64,000 nt of DNA from positions 30,072,001 to 30,136,000 of the forward strand of contig CM119372.1 of the NCBI GenBank assembly GCA_051294905.1, written 5' to 3'. Source of the DNA: Botryllus schlosseri. Taxonomy: Eukaryota. Below, in pieces: positions 1,701 to 47,057 of this stretch. The notes under the pieces are model-generated. The model was not told the origin of the DNA, searched no databases, and saw only the letters and a list, made by a program, of their open reading frames with translations. Each line of letters opens with the position of its first letter. Position 1 is the first letter of the stretch. Made by a program: the position numbers and the translations under genes.

Positions 1701-1967
1701 ATTTTATGAATAGGAGAGAGTAAATCACCGTTTCTTTATTGTGCGCGACGTTGAGAGAATAGACAGTGAAAGCTTGTTATGAGCGCTACCGGGGCATGCC
1801 CCGGCTAGGCATTCGCAAAGCGATAACACGCTCTGATTTCGGTATATATAGATTGCTGTGCGTCTATAAATGGTAAAGAATTGTTATTAAACAGAATTTT
1901 AGGTGGGGCAATGCCCCAGTTGCCCTATAGGACGAGCCGCCACTGATCAATATTAGAAATAGCATAT

Positions 1968-2150
1968 GTTGAAGAAATTGCTGAGAATCTGATGGTCATA
2001 CAAGAAACCATACTTTGCAAACAATGCGAGAATAATAGGAGCGAAATTACCCTGATCCCCCGTGGACATCTGGGTCTGTGTCAAGAATGTTCGTCCGATG
2101 CTGAGCGCTGCATATTCTGCTATGGGAAATATCGCAAAAGATCAAAGTGT
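1968..2150 (+). pseudogene. IAP/BIRC-type C3HC4 RING finger relic
   Basis: VEEIAENLMVIQETILCKQCENNRSEITLIPRGHLGLCQECSSDAERCIFC has IAP-RING spacing (C-x2-C-x11-[C>R]-GH-x3-C-x2-C-x6-C-x2-C). The third ligand is CGT (Arg) instead of TGT. No BIR exons were seen. Confidence 0.6.
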
Positions 2151-3066
2151 ATGGAGCTTGACGGTGCAGGCAAGACAAACGTGTTTCTGTCTATTGGACT
2201 GGTAACAAGGTAGTACTGTGTAATGACGCTTTAGTTCGCTTTAATATGTTCAAATACTGTAATCGCTATGTTCTTGATTATTACTATCAGGAAGCTTTAA
2301 ATGGCGCTAACATTTTCATGCCCTGAACATAGTTGAGAGTTAATGAACGTTTATTATGTGGATAGTCAGTTGTCGCTGCGTAATTGCATTTGTGGTTGAT
2401 TGAGGATGAGGTCATATTATTACGTATAAAATCATTGCGTGACGTACTTGATATCTGAAGGATAAGACTAGTATGTGTATTGTTGTTGACACGTATATTT
2501 GGTTCGCCGTTTAATCAAGTACCATATGATTAAGATATATTTGCTTGTTTTGTGTTAACCGTATTGATGTTAAACTATTATTAATAGTGCATGACGATAA
2601 CGGGGTTTGACAAAGCGAGACTTGTGACTAACTGCTATAAATGTAAATAGCTGGGCCCTGTAGGGATAACTAGGGTATTTACGTAAACACCAGTACTTGT
2701 CCTTGACATGTTGTTCAATGTCATAAGTAACTAAAATAAATACCCCTCCCTATAATAACGTCACAGATTCTTTACAAAGTCAAACCTGTTACAATGAGTG
2801 TTTATAATAATCTCTGTTGTACCGTCTCGTACAGTGAGGCGTTATAACCGACCACGCCTTATGTTAGTGTCGGGACCCTCCACCCTAACGGGATAGAAGT
2901 TTAGGATTCGTGGTAAATCAGATCTATGGTCTGTGAGACACGGTACATACGAATGAATAAAAAGCTTGAAACACCAGTACCATCGAACCCAGAGATATAG
3001 TAGATTGTGATCAAAATACTATTGTAATTGAGTGTTGTGTAATGACACAATATTTCATGAATGAAT

Positions 3067-3176
3067 TTTTCGGCAGGATAGGCCGTCACATGAATTATAT
3101 GTGCAAACCAACCTTGGAGCTGCTTTTCGGCAGGACAGGCCGTCGCATGAATTATATGCGTAAACAAACCTTGGAG
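3067..3176 (+). repeat. Tandem repeat, 57-bp period x2
   Basis: TTTTCGGCAGGAYAGGCCGTCRCATGAATTATATG...AACCTTGGAG at 3067-3119 and 3124-3176. Confidence 0.9.
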
Positions 3177-3553
3177 TATTGAAAACGTTTAATATTCGTG
3201 CATGTTGATGAATAGGTTTAGATAAAACTTGTAATATAATTGAAGCATGTTTACCAATTTTATCAGGTTTTACTCATAGAAACCTCATTCCACTTTGCAT
3301 GGTTATGATTGGAGTATTTGGTTGTATTAAGGTCTAGTTTACTAGTTGTACCAGATTGGTTTAAAGTTCTGGACCTGGAGGTCATTGTCTGATTGGATCC
3401 AGCTGCTGCTACCCTTATCACTGCTTCGATCACCATTTGTGGATGCTACAAGGTCACAACATCAACACAGATAAGGAAAACCAACACTGTGAAGTAAAAT
3501 CGAACCAAGTGTGGACTCTCGCAGTAACAAGCGTTGCTGGAGCTGCACTATAA

Positions 3554-4633
3554 TAGGGTTGCCATACGTCCGGAATTTCCCGGACATGTCCGGAATTTCG
3601 CTGAAAAAAATGCGTCCGGGAGGAAATTCTAAAATATGCCAAAATGTCCGGAATTTTGGAGGCTTGAAGTAGGCTCAAAAGTTTTTCGTAAATCAATATG
3701 AACAATATTATTCTCAATCAGATTTATGCTATTCGAATTTTTTTTTCACGCTGCGCGCGAGTTGATGCCACTTACGTTGATGTTAGTATGGGCACCAGGC
3801 TCCGTCCTCGCAAAAAATGAAATCAAAAATAAATAAATAACCACCAGATACTGAAATAAGTCTCATTGTAATCGTAATTGTAAGCTAACGGTATATTCCT
3901 GGAGTTGGTTAAGGCCGATTGGATGCTTCAGTCACAGACATTGGTTCCAAATCTTGGGGTCCTTTGCTTTTATCTGGGGATCGCGAAGATGTTGGATGTA
4001 ATCAGCTTCAAGAATACGCCGTGAGTAGGTTTGGAAAAGTTGAAATTTTTTTGTAATCAGTTTATCAAGTTTTGAGCTGGGCCAAAATGTTGTAGTTCAC
4101 CAGATGTGCAACCTGCTGGTGCTTTTTATAGGAGCCTAATACATGGAAGAATCAATATCATTGACAGAATTCATTCATAAAATGTAACAACCAGATGCAT
4201 ATAGTAAGTGCCCAAGCAGTTACATCGATTACCATATGGTGGGCCCAAGATCAGTGCTTTTGTGGGCGGAAGGGGGCAGAAAAAATGTTTTTTCGGACCT
4301 AGTTAAAACACACAACTAGATAGCCGCACCGACCTAACAGTATAGCAGGGCTGTCAAACACAATCCCGACACGCCAGACACGGCCCGGGTGACGATTTCA
4401 TCTGGCCCGTGAAGAAATTTATTGCGGACCCAAGCAAGTAGCAATCACCGAGCTCACATTACAGATGGCCCTATTCATGACCCATGTTCCCTCCATCCCT
4501 TTATACAGTCGATGAACAATGCGTTGCTAGTGTGACGTCATATTGGCAGACAATGTGTTATACCCCATTTTAAATCTGCTAGTGGGCGCTAAAGAGTGTC
4601 CGGAATTTGCTTCACAAAAATATGGTAACCCTA
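3554..4633. mobile_element. Non-autonomous hAT-type element inserted upstream of gag
   Basis: TIRs TAGGGTTGCCATA / TATGGTAACCCTA. Perfect 8-bp TSD CACTATAA at 3546-3553 and 4634-4641. Subterminal GTCCGGAATTT repeats. Confidence 0.9.
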
Positions 4634-5085
4634 CACTATAAACGTATTGGAGGCACCAAGCTGGGATTATTACTTCTGGTGTAGCACGTTGACCTATAAA
4701 TGTGTTCAAAGACGACCATCGTTAAAACTGCATTGTGGCCCTGATTGCGTCTGTAATTTCATTGTTAGTTACGTTGTCACCAGTATATCTACATTTGGTA
4801 CCGGGGTTTTCTTCAACTACAGTTCCGATTGGAAACGGAAGACCTAACAACGGAGTTACAACACCGTCCCCAACTCTTATTGGCTCGCAAAACATATCTA
4901 CAGGAAGCCAATTTATCATTACTAAAGACTCGCTATCTAAACTTCTGGAGTTGGAGACTAACGACCACAACTCATCACTCGGAACAACATCGTGGCCTAC
5001 CTTGGACGACCCGACCATCTCCAGCGTAAAGCGGGCCCTCGAAAACTCTACTACGGGTCTATAAATCGAATCTATTGTTATTGCC

Positions 5086-7997
5086 ATGCGAAGAATATTG
5101 AAACTATTTAAAAAGAAGAAATCAACGGCGGCATCGGCGGAGCTAAAGCAGGGAATCCGACTGCTTAAATATACCCAAAAGCGTCACGAAGATGTGCGAG
5201 ACCAAGAGAGGCAACTTGCTAAAGATGTGGCCGACCAGACAAGAGTCCTAAAGGAGTTCAAAACGACCCTGCCCGAGGCAGTGAAGGTGCTGGAAAAAGC
5301 AAGAAAAGACGTCCGGCGGGCTCAAGCTGACCTGAAGGCCGTTTGTGACGCCACTTCAAAAATTACTGGAAAAGTTTCCACAGACGTATTAAACGAAATC
5401 TTGCAGACAGAATTCAAGTTGGGTAACGCCCATGCGCAAGCGGTAGTAGACAAACAGCATCCTCCTCACGCCCTGACTGTCATGCCCACAGCACCTACTC
5501 CGGCCTATGATCCACCAGCTATCCGGATGGTCAGGGAGACTCAGCCTATGCCCACCTTCACCGTGAAAAAGGGGTTTGATTATCATACAGTAACGGCGGT
5601 CTACCCTACGCACCCAGACGTGAAGACTGATGCCCCATCTCGACCGACACCGGTTGCCCATTCACTGATGGCTCCAACCTTTAGAACAAAAGGGAATATG
5701 CATCCCGCGATGAAGACCAAAGGTGCTGCGAACACGCCCATGGCATATTGGACACCTAAGGGAATGGCGGCAGGCGAACCAATGAGAATGGACAGCGGCA
5801 CGGACTCCGAATTGGACAGTGAACATCTCCCCACATTCCGGAAACTGGTGTCGAGACCTCGAGATGCAAAGAGTCAGCAACGGGACAGTGACAAGTTGGG
5901 TGATGTTGGGACACGAAGTAGTCGGGCAGGAAACTCACCGAACGACGCTAAACACGTCACTTTTCATGGAGAAAGGGAGGAGTATGATGAAGGAGACTCG
6001 GAGGCTCAATCAGAAGATTCTGATTCTGAAAGGGCGACGACATCCGGACTGCAGAGGCTTGTACAACAAATGGAATCCGCACAGGACACCCTCCAGGAAG
6101 CTACTCGAAATGCTTTCCTTAGAGATAGTGGCGCTTCCCGAGAAATTCTCCGTGGTCCTGAGTATTACGATGCGGGCTATCTTCCAAATGGCCGGGGAAA
6201 TCCTGGAATGCCGCGTTTTGCATCTACTCCAGATGCCAGTGATGATGGCCGCCCAATTCAGCCGCGCTCGCGACAAATGGAGGTAATAGTAAACCCAACG
6301 CTAACTACACCTGCTAGATTTCAGTCCGAAAAGGAAATGATACAGTTGATAATGGATCCGGGGGACATGCCTCTTCTCAAATGGATGGAGAACACAATGA
6401 GACGGTGAAGGTAATACTGATGCTGATATAATATTGATGAATGCAATGCAGAAGAAATTGAAGAATGCTGGGCGTTACAAACAAGCTGATCAACTTGGAA
6501 ACTTCTTCAACACAAACTCGGGAAACGCCAGTTGGGAATCCGTTATGAGGTCACTATCACTTTCCAACCCGCAAGGAATTGTGAACAATGAAAAAATTAT
6601 CAACGATTTCCGAAGAACGTATCATTGGGAAGATGAACCCCTACCCCTACTTAACAGCGCCCTGAAACAACTGGAGATAGATATGGACGACCTAGTGTTT
6701 GGCAATCCGGACGGACTGCGACTTTTCCGCAATTTGAGACAGCAGCTGCCGGAAGCCCTCAGGTTGTTAATAAGGGGATGGGAAGAAAACAGCTGGCGGA
6801 AAGTCGCAGAAGAACTCCAACTGTTCTGGAACTCGGAATTCCAAGATGAACAGGAATCGAGTCCGACGATTCAGAGAACCCGAAGAACGCAGAAGAACGC
6901 GAGTCACCCTTGCCGCCTGTACATATCTATAATGTACAGCCCGCTGGGCCTGTGATACATAGCTATCCCACTCACCCTAACGGAGATGGACAACTGGGAG
7001 TACCTCCGGAGCCTACCTTATCTTCTTCACATCCTCCGCCCGAATTCGAGGCAACGCCACCTCGACCTCCCAGAGTGGTCCCTTTACGGCCTCTTGTGAT
7101 TACAGGACAGGTTTCACAACTACGCCGAAATCCTGTTCGCAACGCAAGATTAAACCGGTCCCCTACTAACGTATCGATAGGTATCGGGCCAGGCAGACGA
7201 GCGCAAACTTCTAGGAGACAAAGCGCCTCTGCTGGACCCGATACCCAGCCTCTACATATTTCAGGGTCAGCACAATCCGGTCAACAACCAGGAACTTCAA
7301 GCCAAAGAAGCCCACGAACGGAAGGAACACAGGATTCTGGAGTGGGACCAGATAATACGCAAATCACTCCGTCAAACAGTCAGGAGGCTCGCCACATCGC
7401 GGAAAGCCAAGGTGAGAGGTACAATTTCCTTGGAAATGCTAATATCTTTGCCTCATTAGGCTTGTATTTGAATCCTTCCCAGGGCCAGGCCCTTTCGGTA
7501 TGTTATTACTGTAAGGCCCCCGGGCATCAATCCCGGAATTGCGTTGCCAAGTTTATCCTTTGGCTAAACAATGAGGTACTCACTAGAGATAGCGAATTGG
7601 GATGGATAATCCGTAAACGTGTACGACCGGTGCCGCAGCGTGTTAAGGAATCTGCTGAACGCAACTGGCGTCCGTTCCCTACTACCCATGGATTATCGAC
7701 TACCCCAGATCTTGACCGGTATCTCATATCACATGGTTCTCCCTCGTTAGCAGAAAGAACAAATCTATGCGAGGCCTATTATAATAGTAGAACTAGAACC
7801 CGAGATAAAACCACTGGCAAGACAGGGACCAATGGGGCCCCAGGGGACCACCCGCGAATCCAATTCCTAATAACGGCCAGGTAGACTGGGTTGCGCCTTC
7901 ATATAGACAAGAGCCGCGTCAATACGCCGCCTCTTACTGGACAGATGAGGAATTAGAACAAGGCTTACGCGTGTCAAAAAACGGTTGGGGGCGCTGA
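5086..7997 (+). pseudogene. gag: Gag polyprotein (~970 codons) broken by three frameshifts (~6400, ~6910, ~7806)
   Basis: ORFs 5086-6408, 6401-6955, 6910-7884 and 7809-7997 overlap consecutively. N-terminal coiled-coil, capsid-like segment (KWMEN...ASWESVMRSL...WRKVAEELQLFW) and zinc knuckle CYYCKAPGHQSRNC at 7501-7542. Confidence 0.75.
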
Positions 7998-8020
7998 TTG
8001 ATCCGGTAAATCAGCTCCCA
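7976..8020 (+). promoter_or_regulatory. -1 programmed ribosomal frameshift signal (gag to pro-pol)
   Basis: A_AAA_AAC at 7976-7982 is in the gag reading frame, and a -1 slip enters the protease frame. Downstream hairpin: GCTGATT 7993-7999 pairs with AATCAGC 8009-8015, and TGGGG 7986-7990 with TCCCA 8016-8020. The gag TGA lies at 7995-7997. Confidence 0.8.
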
Positions 8021-8618
8021 GAGACAATATTACCCCAACATGTTAAAATTGTACATAATGCCTCGTTACCTTTGTTTACATTCCTTGATGCACTGGAAAA
8101 CCCCCTACAACCGAATTTCACGGAATTATTCGGTGGACAACTTTTATACTTAGTGGATACCAAAACAGGCACCAAATTCCTAGCCGATACGGGCAGTATC
8201 CCCAATTTGATTATGAAAAGCGTAGTAAAAAATAAATATCCGAAATGCTGGGCTGAACGACAGCCACTTGATATGAAATTGCGCGGAATAGGAGGCTCGT
8301 CCCGAGTCGACTCCTTAGTGATAGTACCTCTTGACGGACTGCAAGTTCCATTTGCAACTGGCAAGAGAGTTCCTCTTAATATTGTGGGGCTAAAATGGAT
8401 TGATAAAGTACAACAATTACCGAGTATAGATACTGAATTTAAAACTCCGTCTACTGATAATGAAGAATTATCATTGGCAACACTACATAGTATGACTTTA
8501 CGCGATAAAAAGGACGGAACCAGAATTGGAAACAGTCCTTGCAAAACTGTGACCAAGAATGGGTTGGTGAAAGCTGCAGAACAGCAGAGCGTCGAGACGG
8601 CAACGGCCGCTGGCGCTG

Positions 8619-9015
8619 GCGTCGAAGTGGCAAGGGCTGCTGACGCAAACGTTGGGTCGGTAAACACCGCTGACGTTACGATAGAAAAGAGAGACTCTTT
8701 GGGTGCCGAGCAAGGAAGGCCTGCTGACACCTGCCAAAATCGCGCCGAGCGAGGAAGTCCCGCTGACGCAAATAGAGTTCACACTAATCAAGGAGGCTCC
8801 AATGATGTAGGCAATATCAGCGTCGAGTTGGCAAGGGCCGCTGACGCAAACGTTGGGTCGGTTAACACCGCTGGCGTTACAAGAAATCAAATAGACTCTT
8901 TAGGTGCCGAGCAAGGAAGTCCTGCTGACACCAGTCTAATTCGTGCCGAGCGAGGAAGTCCCGCTGACGCGAATGGGGGTCAAACTAATCAAGCAGACCC
9001 CGAGGATGTAGGCAA
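8619..9015 (+). repeat. Tandem duplication, 201-bp (67-aa) unit x2, inside pol
   Basis: VE(V/L)ARAADANVGSVNTA...DSLGAEQG.PADT...RAERGSPADAN....NQ....DVG occurs twice, starting at 8619 and 8820. Confidence 0.95.
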
Positions 9016-11339
9016 AGCTGTTTGTCCAGATGACGGTAATGCATCAGTGCGGAATGATCCCACGACAGCCGCCGTCATGCCTACTTCACTCGACAATAGT
9101 TCCAACGCAGCTACTACTCATTTTCCGGATATGAGTCCGGAGGAGACTAAAGAGGAGTCTGGAGATTTTAGTATGCAAGTCTCTCCAGAACAAGGGCCCC
9201 CGTCGGATCAAAGTTCCGGCGGCGTGACGTTAGGCGTGGGCACGCGCCGAGATCAGAGGTTAACACGAATAGGTAGGGAAGTACCGCTGACGAAAAAAAA
9301 CCTCGCCCTCTCCCCACCAACTGCAAAACCCCGATTATCGCATAAGCTAAACAGAAGGATGAACGGTCTGGTAACCACGTACGTTCTACAAGAGGGAACC
9401 AGTTCTGAGGTAAATACTGACCTTGAGGTCCTGCGCCCACAATCAATTGAGCTAGCGAAATTACCATATAAGCCCCTTGATTTGACTACGCCAGAAAATA
9501 CCATTATCGCCGACAACGTATGGTCGGAGGTCTATAAACCTTTTGCGATTGAGCTGGAAGATCTGCGATGCCATCTTAGCACGCCCCAATCTATGAAGTA
9601 CAAGTGCGACATCGAACTAAAAGACCCGTCAACTAAGCCATTTGTCTCTGGTCGCTATAATATGAAAGGGGAAAGCCAGACCAAAGGTTTACAAGCAGCT
9701 ATACCCTTGTGGTCAGCAAATATGGAGTCATGCGTGACGAAGCCAATAACGGAGAAGTACCAGCAGCACATAAAAGAACATGGCCAGGCTGATGGGAAAA
9801 ATACAATACCTATGGATGCCAACATTTCTCTCAGCGCAAAGACGGCCGAAGATAACTTACTCCTCTTACGAGTTGGGTTTAAAATAAAGGAAGTGATTTA
9901 TCTCAGCACGATGCAAGCATTCACGTCAGATGGATTGTACCGATCCTATTGGATAGAAATGGCGGCAGAAGATGACGATCCCCGTGCTGCTAATCCGAAA
10001 AGGGAAGAAGTAACCCATATTTTGAGTGAATCTCAACAAGTAAGAGTACAACGAATATTGATGTACCATTACCGGCATGCAGAGTGCTAAGACTCGACAA
10101 ATGGATACCGCCCATGGGAAAACATCCATGCGATTGTACAAGGCAAACTGAAATTAAATTTTGAAATGACCGAAATAAAAGACACCTTGATAAGTTGCGA
10201 TAGGGCTGTAGTCACGACCTACGGTTTGGCCGCGGCACACCGACATACGAAAGGGTCGACTCCCCCCTACAAGGAGCACGGAGGTGACGGTATGCTATGT
10301 CACATGGCGACTGAATTGAACGCAAAAGTTCTAATGAATGAGGGGATCAAAAGGATGAACAGAAAGTTTGTTCATCCTAGCAAGTCAAAGACGACAAAGA
10401 TGCTTGGCCGGAAGATTGTTATCAGCATGAATGCGGCGGACCTGAAGACTGAAGGGGTGAAATTGCTACAATCTCCAAATCCCGATGTTGTGCTGTGTAC
10501 AGGGCCAATACCGGTGAAATGAGTGCAATTGGGAAATTGAAAATACTGCAGGGGGTCCGTCATGTGTTCACAAAATGATTGTGTTGAACTTTCAGGAATT
10601 TGGCTGCACAATGAATTCAAACGGACAAAACCTAAAACGCGTAACTAGAAATATGCTGAATCAGCAGGAGTGCACTTAATACGAGAGAATAATTGATAGT
10701 AAAAAAGGGGATTCATGTTGGAGTGTTTCACATGAAAGAAATCGATTTTTTCATGGGGAAACATGAAATGGGACGTGTTGCACATGTTCCGGGAAATCAG
10801 GTGTATAGTATATGTGGTCCAAAAGTTTGATGCATAAAAAATGGAAAAAAGATCTTGCAAAAATTTACATGAAAAATCGAAAAAAGTAGATGAAATATCG
10901 ATAAAGTTGAAAAAAATTATCTTAAAAATTGGACAAAAGTAGCAAAAAGATGCACTATAGTATTCCTCTCAACAGCCTGAAACACCATACTACATAACTT
11001 CTGAGTATTTAGAAAGCTGCCGGAAGCTGTAAAAAAAGTTGCAAAAGTCGCAAAAACTTGCCCTAGTGATAAACCAAACTTCGACCTCCAGACCCACCCA
11101 CCAGGATATGCGAAAATTTTACATAATTTATGATTGAATCGGTCAATAATATCGGGAATTGCATATATATTGCTATAATATTTTATCCTCTCTCTGCCCT
11201 CGTATTCAGATTTACCGGTAGAGCTAAGTGAGGTGTTGTCTTGGAAAATGTAGGCCCGTTATTAATAACTATTCGGGCGGGCCCGTTGGTATAATGACTT
11301 CGTTGCATGATGTTATATCGTAAACTCCTGTTAGGTGTG

Positions 11340-11624
11340 GCAAGTTAGCGTAGTTGTATAATACACAGCTACAACACCAACGGGTTGTGGGTTGAAGTTC
11401 GACCGAGGTCAACTCCAGAATTCCTACCTAATTAAGTGTTGGAGGTTTATCTGAGCTCCTCCTCGCCATATCATTCGTCTAAGCGGTGTCTTATAGAAAG
11501 CCTAGAAGTGGGCCGTGCTACAAGTCGGCAGCTACGGAATAAGATTAAAGAAAATTGGCCTTGTGTGAATGATCATAGTAGTCGACAAACACCATGAATA
11601 CCGCGAACAAACAAACTCTTGTCA
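11340..11624 (+). mobile_element. tRNA-derived SINE, same family
   Basis: Collinear with the reverse complement of 49037-49314. Inserted inside a CAGGACC-family repeat. Confidence 0.85.
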
Positions 11625-14501
11625 GCTATGTCAAAAGATATTGAAATCGTCCAAACGTACTAAACTAACAGACGCACACGATTTCAAATCGGTATTTCTT
11701 CACTGGCTAATAATTTTTCTCTGTGGAATAGCATTTGTGGGGTTCAGATTGCCAGGACAGGAACATTCGGCGCTAGCCATTTAGGCCCATAACGAAGTTT
11801 TCGGTCAGCATAAGTGCCGTCCTTTACGGCCAAGGTATTCCAGCTACCGATCGTTCTGGCACACCTCTCAGAGTCGCATGTTTCAAGGCCTGAACCTTCA
11901 TATGTCTTGGTGCGGTAATGGCCGACGTCGAATTGCCCATATGTATATATATAAATCAATTGAGGGGGGTTTGGGGTGCGGCAGTTACGGTCCTGTGTAC
12001 TATACTGTTAACACATGGCAATACCGGTCACTTGCAGTTTTCCTGAAAAAAAAATCTATCGCATTTAATCTTCATAGTCATGACCTGACACTAACTTTTA
12101 GTTAGAGTAGTTGGTGCTTTAAAATAATGCTTCCTATCTGATACCCGATCTGATAACCTGCTTACCAGGTTAGCATTCCTCAGATGTAGTGTTTTCATCT
12201 ATTTTGAAAATGAATTAAATTATTCAGAAATGACCCGGGAATAGTATGCGCTTAGTTGGCCTTCCTTTGATAGTCATTGGTATTTTATTTCCGTCTCTAC
12301 GACCCCAGAGAATAAGCAAACGACCCCATTGCGGTCACGGCAGCAATTTATCTCGACGGCGTTACAGCCATTGCTATGCTTGGACATGAAATTAACCACG
12401 GAAACGTTGCACCTATAGAAGCCTGTAATATAAAAGAAAGATATCAATAGTCCCTGTCTAGCAGTCGAGTTTTTTAGGCCTAGTTTTCGATAAAAACCGA
12501 AAAACTTAAACCGCTACTTACTTTAGTAAGTATGGTTTCGCCAAAAAACTGTTAAAATTGAAGAGAAAGATAGTCTAAAACAGAGGTTCTCAAACTGGAG
12601 AGGGGATTCGCGACTCTTGAAGGACGTGAAAGCATCTGAGGAGAGGCGCGTAGCCGCCAGACAGAAATGATGTTTCTTGATGTAGCTCAGTGGGCCACAT
12701 GGGAATTTCGAGGTGGGCCATATGGGCATTTTGATATGAGCCATAGGGGTATGTTGAGGTAGGCCACAGAGCTATTTGTATAATTGTGTATTTAGTCAAA
12801 GATTAGGAATATTTGTTGTTCCATAAACTCAAAACATATATTCATATTATCGAATTTTTAAGCCGACTCTGAGCAGATGTAATGACACGTATGGAGGTAG
12901 GCTACATGTACATGTCGAAAAGGGGAGGGCGACACGGCGTATTTTGAACCCCGGCTACGCCTATGATCAAAAGCTAATAGCAACTAAAATAAGTTCGATT
13001 ATATAATAAATGGACCTTACTTCTGAAGTAATCAAGTATTCCTGCAGGGTCAAATATCGTATGCCGTTCAAAAGGGTGTGTCTTAAACTCGGAGTGTACT
13101 TGTTGCAGATATATGGTATCTTCCGCAGATCGTATAATATTGTAACATCAAAATAGTCTTAATTGCAATTTATTATCAATTATCAACTTGAAGTGTACGG
13201 CACTAGGACAACGAATCGTAATGGATTGAGTATTTAGAGCGGTGCATAAATCTTTGGAGTCGATCTAAAATGTCCGGCCTTGAAATCATTGTACATAATG
13301 TAAGAATCGCATGAATTTTTTGTGTCATTGGATTGAATGTTTTGACATTGAAACTTCAGTAGGTACAAGACATACGCACAGCTTGCATCATAGAAATTCG
13401 TTATTACTTCGCTGTAGTATCCCATTAACAGAAATCACGTTGAGAATTGTTTGAAGCCGGCCGAAAATCGTTTCGCTACCACAGTTATATTTATTCCTCA
13501 CCATAGTGGAACTTCGTGGATGCGGGGATTGGATCATTGTGTTTCGTTACGTGCGTGGAACAGTGGGTGCCCATAATGTATACAAGAGCTATATGGGCTA
13601 CCACTGCCGTACTTGTCGCATCCTAAAATCCTCTAATTCGTGGGAGATCGAACAACCCCAAAATTACTACGTTAGTCGTTTTTTATAGAGGAGATTTATG
13701 CCATTGAAAAATTTATTGCCGCTTCACGTGATTTCGTGTCGCTGGGGGTATCGATTTTAATATGAATAACAAGAACAATGCGCATATTTTAGACAAATAA
13801 GGAATATTGGCGCCAACGAATACCACGCATTTAACTGGTCCGACTCTAGGCAAAGAGGTGAGCCACAGGACATTTTCCAATCGAAAAATAGGCCAAGGCT
13901 AAAAAAGGTTGAGAACCCCTGATTTAGTTTATGATCAGGTACGTTTGAGCTACGCTCAAGTAGGGTAATGGAAGGGTTAGGCACTAAAATAGCTAAGATA
14001 AATGAGCGACGTGCAACCATTGTGCATGATTTATCTTTAACAAAATGTTAAACTGGAAATCTACTCGCGATTTACTCCCAGCTCGTATTGATTGCTTTGT
14101 GTATAGTCCGAATTCCATATTTGAGAAGTGTGTCAATAGCCATAACACCCTCCATGCCAGCAAACAATGCATTGAGATTGCAAACATTCTGGTTGCTCCA
14201 TTAAATATTTTTTGACATGATAAGGGGGCCCAAAATTTTTCGCTATCATCAAGGAGTGTGTCGAAAAAAGCGTGAGAACCACTGGTCTGAAACATAACCA
14301 TATGAGCAACTATTACAAGCAGTAAAATCGACTTGAATACTCTACTAAAAATGCACAGTTTTGGGCGGGAAAAAATTGGATTAGAAGTACTCTAAAACGT
14401 AACATAAATAGTAGTGTAAGAGACAGGACAAATCCATTGGAGTGCTCTCAAAAAGTGCAAGTACTTCAAATGCTGTTGAAGCAATCCGTTGCTATCTCCA
14501 G

Positions 14502-14825
14502 AAAGCGCCCGATGACAAACTGCTCGTGTTCAACTGCAGAGAAGGTTGGCGACCTCTGTGCCACTTTTTGGAGGTCCCATTCCCACAGAAAGCTTCTCCT
14601 CACAAGAACGTGAAGGGGGAGGTGATCAAAGAGACCATGCGTCATCCTCTCGCATTAGTTTATCAGAAGGAGGTCTTCACGAGCATGATTGTTTTCGTCG
14701 TAAAGCTGGTCGTGGGATTGTCGTTGATGAATTATTTCAACGCAAATTTTGTATGCAACATATTTGTCGACTATGTTATACGTAGACGGCAGTGTTGGGA
14801 CAACAGGAGTCCACTTTTTCTCTGA
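14502..14825 (+). pseudogene. Orphan 3' exon of a Sulfotransfer_4-like (P-loop sulfotransferase family) gene with a C-terminal hydrophobic segment
   Basis: After acceptor ctccag the frame reads KAPDDKLLVFNCREGWRPLCHFLEVPFPQKASPHKN, matching the family C-terminal signature LL-x-F-x-x-x-EGW-x-PLC-x-FL...P-x-x-N. A hydrophobic stretch follows (VFTSMIVFVVKLVVGLSLM). The last codons run into a MITE starting at 14789. No upstream exons were recognised. Confidence 0.6.
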
Positions 14826-43470: not shown

Positions 43471-46400
43471 TAGGGTTGTCCAAAATTTGAAAAATTTCGA
43501 AAATGCTGCGTTGTAATGTCTTATTCTATAGATTATTGATTAAAAACATCAACAAGCCTGAAAGAAGCTCTCAGGAACGTCGTTAAGATTTCTTACAAAG
43601 CGTTTGAAAGTAGCTGCCAAAGAGTGGGCGGGCCACCGACGGCGAAATTGCAACTAGGCGGGCAATGACGAAACCACGATTCTTGATTGGGTAATCGGTT
43701 ATGCTTCAATGATGACGGCGGCTGTCAGCTCTGATTTGGGTGCTTCACCGTGTTTGACAGAAGGAGTAGGTTTTGCTGCTGCTGAGTCTGTTGGTGACGG
43801 CTGTAATACTGTAAAAGCGTGTTGTGGTTTGATGAGTCAATAGTAGTAATGTAACACTTGTTCCTTGCTCAATGTTTTAGTTGCAGCAGCATTTTCTGTT
43901 CTGATGAGGTCGATTTTGTTAGTAGTGGTTGTGGTTATGTACAAGGGCATTGTGGGTTGGTGAGTTAATAGTCGTAATGTAACACTTGTTACTTAAATGT
44001 TTTAGGCGTAGCTGTAATTTATGATAGAAGGCAAAAATATTACTGTCATGGCAGAGGCAAAACGGCGGAAGACTGTGCACTTGCCACAGAGAAGAACAAG
44101 ATCTCGATCTGAGCATTACTTGGTCGGATATGCTTGCGATTACATCTGTGGCTCGAGATTACCAACCTTGCGAGAAGTAATGAGTTACTTTCTGCATCTG
44201 AAAGACCATTGCCCTCAGTCAACCCCTACTCGTGAGCTATGTAATGTGGTGGTTCATGATGTCATGACAGTGTGGCAAATGGCGAGAATTGCCACAATAC
44301 TTAAAGGAAATGCGGTGAAATTACTTGAAAAACTGAACAAAAAATATATTTTTCTGAAGGCGACCATGAAACGGGAAAGTGATCCCAAGGGTAAGAGGAA
44401 AAAATTCACGGAAGATTTGGACAAGTTGTGGGATAGGCCTATTGGAAGTACAGATGCGATAGCAATAATACAAAATGACATTTATCTATCACATGATAGA
44501 AAGCTCGAAGACATTGCATTCTATGAAGATCAACAGCAATCTCGCAAATGCATAATGTTGGGAAGAGACAAGATTCTCGCTTAAGACATCGAAAAGAAAA
44601 CAGCAACCGTGGCGGATAGAACTGTTAAAAACATTCAACATGACTCAAGTGATGACTATTTTGTTTTAGCATCTTCTTCATCTTCAAAAGAGGGTGATAG
44701 TTTGAGTTCAAGTTCTGATTATGATGCTGATGTTGGTCTTGGCACCTCGACAGCCATTAAGCTGATGGCACCTAAAAATATTATGAATAATACCCATGTG
44801 TCCCAAGCTCTGGATCGATTGCAAATAACAGACAACAAGGCAACAATGCTGATCGGAGCATTTATTACGGCTTGTGGCGGTGACATAGCAATGTTCTCTC
44901 TGTCAAGATCTTCGACAAAGAGAGCCAGGGAAACAAATCGTCTTGAAATTTCCAAGGATATTTCAGAAAAATTTGCAGAAAATAAACCTCAACATGTTGC
45001 TATTCATTGGGATGGAAAGCTCACAGAGGATAGATTAGGAAATCGGTATGAGGCTCTGTCAATTGTCCTATCTTGTCATCCTCAATACTCAGAAGGAAAA
45101 CTACTTGGCATTCAAAAGATGCAAAATGCTGCAGGTCAGACGCAAGCAGAAACCACTTTCAACATAATTGAAAGTTGGAATATAAAAGATGCTGTAACAG
45201 CTTTGGTTTTTGACACTACAGCAAGCAACAGCGGCTGGAAGAAGGGTGCGGCAAAGATTCTTGAAGACCTTCTAGGAAGGAAGGTGTTCTACCATGCATG
45301 TCGGCACCATGTGTATGAGCTGGTAGTGAAAGACGTTTGGAAATCTTTATTTGGAAAGGCCACAACTGGACCAGAGAATGCATGGTTTGCCCACCTTAAA
45401 AGGAACTGGAGCAGTCTTGACAGGGAACAGCAATTCAAGACTCTGACTATTCCTCTATGTTTTGCTGAACGAGCTGCAATGATAGTTGATAAGTTCAAGC
45501 TACTGTTGAACAGAAAGGATTTTTTCACACGGGATGACTACAAGCAATGTGTGACTAATGCTCTTGCTCTTCTCGGTGCAGATGAAGATATACGTCATCA
45601 CAAACCTGGTGCAGCACACCATGCGAGATGGATGGGTACAATTCTGTATGCTCAAAAGATGTTCATGTGGGCCGACCAATTAGATTACAAATCTGAAGAA
45701 GTTGAACTGCTGCGCCGCTTCAATTTATTTTTGGTTCTCTTTTATATCCCTGCGTGGGTGGATTCAAGCATTGGTCGTGATGCAGCTGGTAATGACTTGA
45801 GATTCGTTCAGCACATGTTGAGTTATAAGGAATATGATGAGCAAGTTTCCACAGCTGCTTCACGAAAGCTTTTGAAGCACGACTGGTATATTGTTGAGGA
45901 AACCGCTGTATACGCCTTGTTTTCACCGACGGAAAGCAAGGAAACCCGGGAAAATATGGCAAAGGCGCTCCTGCAAGTAGAGCGAACTTCCAGTTTCAGA
46001 AGGGGCCCACCCTCATTGAATGCAACTATACAGATCAACAAGGACAGTACGTTGTCTGACCTTATTGGGCCCCAGTCGTGGTACATATTTGAAGTTTTTG
46101 AATGCTCTGGGGATTGGCTGCGTCAACCGGTTGATGATTGGCACTTTTCAGATTCATTCAATAAAATGAATTGCTACGTTAGTTCTGTCAAAGTCGTTAA
46201 TGATGCCGCAGAAAGAGGTGTCAAGCTAAGCACAGACTATGCTGCAATCTTGACTGACAATGAACAGCAAAGAGACAGTTTGCTTCAAGCTGTGGAACAG
46301 CATAGGAAGATTTTTGGAGACAGCAGGAAGTCTACTCTTATCAAAGGCCAGTGATCTGCAACACTGACCCTGCGATATACTTTTTAATGATGCCTTTTGT

Positions 46401-47057
46401 AAATAGCATTTTTGCCTTTGTTAAATCTTGAATAAAAAGTGTAATATGCGTTCGTTTTAGAGAGAGACGTCGACTTACCGTAACAAGCCATAAGGAGAAA
46501 TTGACTACTGGTTTGCAATTTATGAGTTACAGTCGTTGTCAACTGGTATGTTTTAGAAGGCTCGAAGGTAGCACGATGCATGCATCTAGTTCATTCTTAT
46601 CTTAATTGGCCAAGCTCCTGTGCAAGAAGTAACAAAACTGTTATACACAGTGCTCAGGTAGAAAATATATTACTGGATCGTTATGCTGTTGTCGATGGCA
46701 GCATTAACAACGTCAATTTACCATATCGCCAATGCCACGAACAGAAATGGCTGCAAACCAACACAACAGAGTAGAACGAAATCGTGACCAGCAATGATCA
46801 CAAAATCAGTATTTCAGCCAATCAGTAGCTTATTATTACAGGTTCCAACCAATCAAAATTCTAGGTTCGTGATTGCCCGCCCACTTCATCGATTCCCCGC
46901 CCACATGCAGACGGCTACTTTCAAACGCTTTGTAAGAAATCTTAACGACGTTCCTGAGAGCTTCTTTCAGGCTTGTTGATGTTTTTAATCAATAATCTAT
47001 AGAATAAGACATTACAACGCAGCATTTTCGAAATTTTTCAAATTTTTGACAACCCTA
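43471..47057 (+). mobile_element. Full-length hAT-superfamily (hATm-like) DNA transposon
   Basis: 144-bp TIRs (43471-43614 and 46914-47057, one mismatch seen). Perfect 8-bp TSD GTACCCAA at 43463-43470 and 47058-47065. Internal transposase. Confidence 0.95.
44021..46354 (+). pseudogene. hAT (hATm-like) DDE transposase, ~777 codons, with one premature TAA at 44582-44584
   Basis: ORFs 44021-44584 and 44609-46354 are in the same frame. Motifs IHWDGK (D), VFDTTASNSG (D), ACRHH (CxxH), PGAAHHARWM and VVNDAAERGVK (E). Confidence 0.9.

Follow-up and report, generated by a model that had tools for sequence, protein, structure and literature searches.

In gypsy-type elements, integrase follows RNase H as a rule. 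Caulimovirids, which have plant hosts, encode a movement protein and use tRNA-Met priming. Enzymes of the Tpt1/KptA group remove internal 2'-phosphates, and several archaeal ones, together with that of Clostridium, also cap 5'-phosphate DNA or RNA with ADP-ribose, as described in the accessible parts of two reports (PMC6182162, PMC8120803); the former demonstrates such 5'-phosphate DNA/RNA capping for those enzymes and not for human or Runella Tpt1 (PMC6182162). The essential residues of Runella Tpt1 are given, in the available text of that study, as R16, H17, R64 and R119 (PMC6097658). Tpt1 (PF01885) has also been noted in the polyproteins of two dicistro-like RNA viruses, EPlV2 and PVLADV1, where it is located between VPgs, according to the portion of the report available (PMC11316551).

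The element described here lies within the window, the whole stretch of 64,000 nucleotides of Botryllus schlosseri DNA that was analysed. It belongs to an animal retroelement whose relatives carry a Tpt1/KptA domain directly after RNase H, and the copy found here is dead and has suffered internal deletions. Our main reading, to which we give a probability of roughly 0.58, is that intact relatives have the order RT-RNase H-Tpt1 and that the deleted form was probably a past non-autonomous family, supplied with RT in trans and likely selected for an open frame from protease to Tpt1. This reading is built on the observed domain order in four relatives, three in-frame deletions, two deletion joints common to a second copy, a primer site, a slippery site and a set of catalytic residues.

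Gag, protease and cis-acting signals

The following features were identified around and upstream of the protease, together with a candidate signal downstream of pol.

4648..4667, plus strand: sequence resembling a primer-binding site, which would pair with the 3' end of tRNA-Thr(AGT) but for 2 extra bases that interrupt it
5086..7999, plus strand: gag, broken, with 3 frame changes in the window copy
7976..8016, plus strand: -1 frameshift signal, A AAA AAC (7976-7982) and a 7-bp hairpin, identified by motif and folding
8126..8479, plus strand: aspartic protease, ADTGS at 8183 (51% identity to P0005, E=5e-32)
8619..9015, plus strand: tandem duplication of 201 nt, in frame, in a low-complexity linker, the copies being 85% identical
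10701..10711, plus strand: polypurine-tract-like run (candidate), 180 nt past the stop

Gag starts with a coiled-coil/low-complexity region and is spread over four pieces in changing frames (5065-6405, 6401-6952, 6850-7881 and ~7824-7999). It possesses a zinc knuckle of the form CX2CX4HX4C at ~7498-7542 (Pfam zf-CCHC, E=1.6e-4, above cut-off) and is homologous to the gag of L001 (E=2e-37), a marine-metagenome relative that is ~40% identical in protease and RT entry. A helical part at ~6330-6856 may be capsid-like, judging from its position; its predicted model (pLDDT 43) was too poor for a fold search. The same slippery heptamer occurs at the aligned position of L001, and the hairpin that follows it in the window is modest (z=-1.9, with 8/200 shuffles equally stable). 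The protease of relative P0012 matches RVP (E=6e-4). An earlier reading of this DNA, made from the sequence only, had considered gag, the frameshift signal and the protease to be retained; A AAA AAC and ADTGS are indeed present, but gag is no longer a continuous frame. The reference for the primer site was the 3' tRNA-Thr-AGT fragment printed in PMC8581331, a vertebrate tRNA rather than the host's own, and when a fitting tRNA was sought by pattern, 21 viral loci came up, none of which contained a tRNA.

Two further features lie at the 5' side of the element.

3554..4633, no strand assigned: DNA-transposon-like insert, unrelated and high-copy, with terminal inverted repeats and an 8-bp target duplication (3546-3553 and 4634-4641)
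4726..5064, plus strand: short upstream ORF, hydrophobic at its N-terminus, then Ser/Thr-rich, and covered by an X9 contig

The insert, over which the summed contig depth reaches tens of thousands, lies immediately upstream of the primer site, either within the putative 5' LTR or at its end, and both ends of the element are overlaid by high-copy repeats. Repeat comparison of 1900-3560, 4634-5100 and 10500-11000 found neither an LTR pair nor a target-site duplication of the element. The upstream ORF had no Pfam match at E<=10, and an Rfam search of 2000-11500 gave a single chance match and no ribozyme. The inactivating lesions of the window copy are three gag frame breaks and a stop in Tpt1, with no LTR pair found.

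The Tpt1/KptA domain at the integrase position

10046..10522, plus strand: Tpt1/KptA RNA 2'-phosphotransferase domain (Pfam, NCBIfam, PDB, Foldseek)

By profile matches and predicted fold, 10055-10519 is a single Tpt1/KptA domain and not a set of integrase pieces. Pfam analysis of 10091-10519 returned one family only, PF01885 (E=2.9e-5; 24.6 bits, just below the cut-off of 26), and four relatives exceed that cut-off (P0004, 42.5 bits; P0021, 31.5; P0009, 30.3; P0020, 29.9), with P0007 falling below it at 22.3 bits. Three RNA 2'-phosphotransferase models of NCBIfam matched, the best being PRK00819 (E=4.9e-9, residues 6-156, far below the equivalog cut-off). Against the PDB, all six matches of the window domain at E<=10 were Tpt1, and all twelve matches of a six-sequence family profile at E<=0.01 were Tpt1/KptA; the profile ranked the Thermococcus and Pyrococcus enzymes first (4.5e-17) and the mouse enzyme last (1.4e-3). 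A structure model was predicted with the stop read as X (best of five pLDDT 77, the others 44-57; pTM 0.47). It matched the winged-helix and ADP-ribosyltransferase fold, and the top 20 Foldseek matches were all Tpt1/KptA (20 matches counted at E<=0.001, those listed extending to E=2.8e-3; TM ~0.45).

All four catalytic residues are kept in the window copy (Arg-His at 10073-10078, Arg at 10202 and Arg at 10361), two of them aligning with residues 64 and 119 of the Runella enzyme (7kw8). The catalytic Arg, His and Arg are invariant in 6/6 aligned sequences and the last Arg in the five that reach that far. The window copy also carries substitutions near the NAD site and a premature TAA at 10088-10090, inside Tpt1; the ORF ends with TGA at 10520-10522.

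The sequence-only reading had seen in this region ordered vestiges of RNase H and integrase, belonging to a non-autonomous element that still made Gag and Gag-Pro. Its five pol peptides do occur in one frame at about the positions given, and of the YxDD and DDE cores that it noted as missing, YxDD is indeed absent from pol and no integrase family was found. The order of the motifs and an H..H..C pattern superficially resemble an integrase zinc finger. Nonetheless, profile, PDB and fold comparisons assign the supposed HHCC motif to the N-terminal RH motif of Tpt1, the supposed core end to its GH motif and the GPY/F-like CTGPIPVK to its C-terminal strand, and Pfam, with E values of up to 10 admitted, matched no integrase either in any of the five segments or in 9500-10519 as a whole. 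With every profile, PDB and fold test pointing to Tpt1, the integrase interpretation is almost certainly wrong. The span 9590..10660, which had been described as in frame, does follow one frame, but the TAA at 10088-10090 had been skipped and the ORF stops well short of 10660. Annotation pipelines would miss Tpt1 here or mislabel it as a decayed integrase in the same way.

Relatives encoding RT, RNase H and Tpt1

When 9500-10087 was compared exhaustively with 1.84 billion representatives, 17 proteins matched at E<=0.001; P0020 and P0021 were added through cluster look-ups and one further search, giving 19. Five of these, in four clusters (P0004, P0007, P0009/P0020 and P0021), include a complete RT and run on beyond RNase H. 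In 4/4 of these clusters Tpt1 directly follows RNase H, and the pol protein has no integrase family match. P0016 includes the first half of Tpt1; the remaining 13 proteins are fragments that stop before this point, except P0003, which is a deleted copy. The relatives are diverse (36% identity to P0004 for P0007, 33% for P0020), and the order PR-RT-RH is present in P0007, P0020 and L001. P0004 and P0007 end just past Tpt1 and P0021 ends within it; in P0020, Tpt1 is followed by a complete exonuclease III/APE1-type nuclease domain, at which the protein ends. A decayed exonuclease III remnant at 10501-10720 of the window was considered and rejected: its frameshift-tolerant score of 26 was equalled by 12/60 random window stretches, and there was no tblastn match at E<=1.

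Three of 556 candidate metagenome loci were retained, with L001 the confirmed relative and L002 without a long ORF, and no related loci were found in the viral contigs or prokaryote genomes searched. Word-index protein searches gave 0/370 and 0/1469 candidates with window sequences and 2/1560 with residues 640-960 of P0020. The Atlas search returned no usable match for the window piece and only leads below 0.9 for P0020.

An ordinary gypsy-type lineage could produce the same picture if Tpt1 stood between RNase H and an integrase encoded in a separate downstream ORF, the latter also having been lost from the window copy; this arrangement would be compatible with a role for Tpt1, and we regard it as a serious possibility, though one somewhat short of even odds. 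In its favour, the element resembles gypsy in its primer site, in its -1 frameshift, in the knuckle of gag and in having PR, RT and RH in that order; the relatives reside in contigs of 246 kb to 2.5 Mb, for which some integration route is needed; and an ATG at 10519 overlaps the stop of the window ORF. That ATG, however, opens only 19 codons, with no plus-strand ORF of 100 aa before 11785; P0020 runs from Tpt1 into a full nuclease and then ends; and the purine run of the window comes only 180 nt after the stop.

Comparison of a family RT-RNase H profile with the PDB gave 8r0s as the best match (1.3e-43) and Ty3 chains next (9e-39), a ranking that is no phylogeny. The entry 8r0s we take to be the cauliflower mosaic virus enzyme. 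Its place ahead of Ty3, like the absence of an integrase from pol and of a detectable LTR pair, would suit a pararetrovirus-like episome without integrase, in the style of caulimoviruses, in which Tpt1 and exonuclease III handle gapped DNA and genomic copies are accidental. The gap between the two scores is small, the gag-pol frameshift and tRNA-Thr primer are retrotransposon-like, and neither the IMG/VR protein scans (no relative) nor the feature search (sub-0.9 leads only) lent it support; we consider it improbable.

A still more specific version of the retroelement reading remains tentative, and we hold it to be appreciably less probable than its negation: that these sequences form an undescribed integrase-free lineage of marine animals with the order Gag-PR-RT-RNase H-Tpt1(-exonuclease III), that the place of integrase is taken there by two captured repair enzymes of prokaryote type, which cap cDNA ends and nick, and that parasitic deletion derivatives of the lineage drop RT and keep Tpt1. 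If this is true, Tpt1, for which no purpose is known in most organisms, would have a function in the replication of retroelements.

RT and RNase H remnants and in-frame deletions

Three remnants lie between the protease and Tpt1.

9356..9703, plus strand: pre-RT region and RT entry (53% identity to P0005), ending at deletion 1
9704..9883, plus strand: RT remnant that starts at motif B and reaches slightly beyond the position of the YxDD motif (41% identity to P0014, E=4e-14), ending at deletion 3
9884..10045, plus strand: C-terminal tail of RNase H (9884-9950) and linker, corresponding to P0004 from residue 748 onward (P0016, E=2e-18)

Comparison of the relatives with the window by tblastn gave the same division (P0005, 1e-35, 9356-9709; P0014, 2e-12, 9689-9883; P0004, 1e-28, 9884-10513). 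Deletion 1, near 9680-9703, removes 122-125 codons relative to P0004, P0007 and P0021. Deletion 2, near 9821, removes three codons, both catalytic Asp included, and with them YxDD from the pol of the window. Deletion 3, near 9870-9883, is the largest (230-245 codons relative to all four relatives) and comprises the remaining RT, the connection and the RNase H core. That pol was reduced by in-frame deletions and its RT is dead, as had been proposed from the sequence, is borne out by tblastn homology and by this alignment, which raises the earlier count of at least two large in-frame deletions to three deletions. The peptides at ~9758-9830 (YQQHIKEHGQ...DANIS), formerly taken for the tail of RNase H, belong to RT between motif B and YxDD, the real tail being at 9884-9950.

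All three deletions are in frame, for which the chance is 1 in 27 if frames are random, and the 201-nt duplication is in frame also. The pol reading frame contains one stop in 857 codons, against 65 and 63 in the other frames. Since Gag and Gag-protease need no open frame past the protease, retention of the frame points to Tpt1 and not to Gag-Pro particles; Tpt1 is moreover the only whole domain past the protease, to which the retained frame again points. It is therefore likely that Tpt1 was useful to the element, as the frame continues into it despite the loss of RT. A derivative that drops RT but keeps its frame into Tpt1 would constitute genetic evidence for Tpt1 acting in the element's own particle.

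Other copies and transcription

The Logan protein P0003 is 79% identical to the window over 81 aa and shares joints 2 and 3, both of those that it covers. It does not reach joint 1, carries a frame change of its own and may represent the same insertion in allelic or orthologous form. Among 17 differences between the two, eight are window-derived, five P0003-derived and four unpolarised; the eight window-derived changes fall at positions conserved in the relatives, so much of the history of the window copy is one of decay.

Short-read contigs from two DNA-type runs leave no bin of the element uncovered, and in one of the runs a single position can carry up to 19-25 different ones. The eight listed contig pieces that lie wholly inside the coding part are 6-17% divergent. 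Five of these are without a gap, one gap-free piece over Tpt1 having 49 differences and 0 gaps, and the other three have gaps of 1, 10 and 37 letters, that of 10 being over Tpt1. No contig bridging a deletion joint occurs among the 16 pieces listed, beyond which there are 90,176 further pieces; the comparison is dominated by flanking repeats, and 493 joints and 3800 loose ends lie outside the rows listed. In two RNA runs, of which 3% and 12% was read and one of which bears another species label, depth was 0 over 4902-9339 and <5 over 9340-10924, and the sequencing-run search listed no RNA run as carrying the window sequence.

These data bear on whether the deletions reflect selection. The deletions may instead have arisen once in an inserted copy and been inherited or duplicated, with the frame preserved by chance and Tpt1 a leftover. 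Consistent with such passive decay, P0003 is the single other copy known to share the joints, it and the window copy are both decaying, and neither an autonomous partner nor an LTR pair was found; against it, three of three deletions and the duplication are in frame whereas the small indels acquired later, those of gag and of P0003, shift the frame, and single positions are covered by as many as 19-25 different contigs in one run. We judge passive decay to be unlikely, though a real contender. Far less credible is a host-domesticated gag-protease-Tpt1 gene with a cellular function: it would fit the exact removal of the two catalytic residues of RT and the keeping of those of Tpt1, but gag has three frame changes, Tpt1 a stop, divergent copies are many and RNA depth is almost nil.

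The idea of a non-autonomous family, put forward in the sequence-only reading, is thus supported in part. P0003 shares both joints that it covers, but the domain retained, and the one that the frame preserves, is Tpt1 and not integrase.

Proposed role of Tpt1

In the preferred reading, in which RT was lost and Tpt1 kept, an intact element would produce Gag and, by -1 frameshifting, a Gag-Pol with a C-terminal Tpt1. In the deleted form, the -1 frameshift at 7976 would give Gag-protease-(RT stub)-Tpt1, which would be packaged with Gag and borrow RT from a helper in trans. Within the particle, Tpt1 may use NAD+ to move ADP-ribose onto phosphorylated nucleic-acid ends arising from reverse transcription. 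Such capping of the 5'-phosphate ends of cDNA or of RNase H products could shield them from exonucleases and from ligation; alternatively, Tpt1 may free the primer or template of 2'-phosphates that block RT. Since 5'-phosphate ends arise when reverse transcription is accompanied by RNase H, end-capping inside the particle is put first: given an enzymatic role, it has about an even chance of being the job of Tpt1, with removal of 2'-phosphates a less probable second and other substrates third. The element Tpt1 is only ~20% identical to the archaeal capping enzymes, so its substrate preference cannot be predicted from them. As a best guess, intact elements may integrate by nick-and-repair, using the exonuclease III/APE-type domain where present, or by host repair.

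A retroelement family with Tpt1 at the integrase position, where in the window copy it was kept through deletions that destroyed RT, appears undescribed in the literature searched. In the open literature, which takes in neither Repbase Reports nor the data files of Troyka, we found no paper that by its title and the start of its abstract describes a Tpt1/KptA-retrotransposon fusion. PMC12859917, in the part available, contains nothing relevant to the element layout. Tpt1, on one occasion with exonuclease III, at the place of integrase is a new layout, and it may mark a different handling of cDNA or a different mode of insertion. The job of Tpt1 without fungal-type tRNA splicing is presented as an open question in the accessible text of PMC6182162; a domain fused to RT-RNase H offers a direct assay on reverse-transcription intermediates.

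Comparison with known systems

The element domain has the same two-lobed fold as Tpt1/TRPT1/KptA enzymes (PF01885; 9ld4 of Thermococcus, 8tfi of Pyrococcus, 7kw8 of Runella and 6e3a of Clostridium), with a full-length match and the Arg-His-Arg-Arg set, and its intact relatives have the H-x-T and VH motifs in common with them. It scores best to archaeal and bacterial enzymes (archaeal 4.5e-17 versus mouse 1.4e-3). Unlike known Tpt1/KptA, it is fused C-terminal to a retroelement RNase H, shows ~20% identity and has a stop in the window copy, and in the element family an additional His and Cys are conserved in the vicinity of the RH motif.

With Ty3/Gypsy elements (Metaviridae) are shared the CX2CX4HX4C gag knuckle, -1 frameshift, PR-RT-RH order, YxDD, tRNA primer site and candidate purine tract. 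Unlike these, the element has Tpt1 (and in one member exonuclease III/APE1-type) after RNase H, and no integrase or GPY/F was found in its pol protein (0/4 informative clusters, nor in the window). Caulimoviridae likewise have PR-RT-RH without integrase in pol and provide the best PDB score for the family RT-RNase H, but the element has an animal host, a gag-pol frameshift and a tRNA-Thr-type primer site; no match to a movement protein was found by Pfam in seven window translations.

Troyka and Kuafuorterviruses, as described in the portions available of two reports, are likewise an overlooked LTR lineage of aquatic animals with short non-autonomous derivatives and sporadic Exo_endo_phos (PMC12440569, PMC11673190). 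Membership of the element in that group was rejected: as far as the same sources describe them, its members have CX2CX8-10HX4C, I/V/L-ADD and integrase, whereas the element family has CX2CX4HX4C, Y/H-x-DD and Tpt1 (PMC12440569, PMC11673190). The Kuafu supplement (PMC11673190) contains 0 entries for PF01885 against 21 for Exo_endo_phos. With EPlV2 and PVLADV1, the element has in common a Tpt1 in the polyprotein of a mobile element or virus; its Tpt1 follows RNase H instead.

Sequences on either side of gag and pol

Features of the window outside the coding region of the element
1992-2174: part of a RING finger (zf-C3HC4_3, E=2.7e-8), lying 5' of the element
3546-4641: high-copy insert, bounded by 13-bp terminal inverted repeats and flanked by a target duplication of 8 bp
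4726-5064: small ORF between the primer site and gag
14415-14822: sulfotransferase exon (Sulfotransfer_4, E=6e-11)
43471-47057: inverted-repeat unit, its 169-nt inverted repeats (93%) flanking ORFs 44018-46351

The primer site, complementary to the 3' end of tRNA-Thr(AGT), begins 6 bases after the high-copy insert, which places the insertion point inside or adjacent to the end of the presumed 5' LTR. Further upstream, reads of the single-cell RNA run X23 pile up over 3000-3316 to a depth of 345; these derive from diverged copies. An adaptor-like sequence, which we take to be the template-switch adaptor, lies immediately before position 3307 in 125 of the X23 reads; this suggests an RNA 5' end at that position. 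The small ORF encodes a hydrophobic, signal-like start followed by a Ser/Thr-rich body, and its product is possibly an accessory membrane or secreted peptide. The sulfotransferase exon belongs to a host gene. The inverted-repeat unit is DNA-transposon-like, and Pfam gave its ORFs no match below E=0.06.

Comparison with related elements

The capsid-like part and the zinc knuckle are separated by a -1 frame change both in the window (6850-6955, where no slippery site was seen) and in the marine-metagenome relative L001 (1373-1517). The two changes differ in their distance from the capsid end, and their common occurrence is probably a coincidence. The protease-RT linker varies greatly in length and contains internal repeats both in the window (8619-9015) and in another protein relative, P0013.

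In P0020, a relative with RT, RNase H and Tpt1, a nuclease is fused C-terminally to Tpt1 (residues 881-1118). Among 60 of 80 matches listed for this region there was no LINE endonuclease chain, the best being bacterial and archaeal exodeoxyribonucleases and APE1 (5cfe, E=3e-41).
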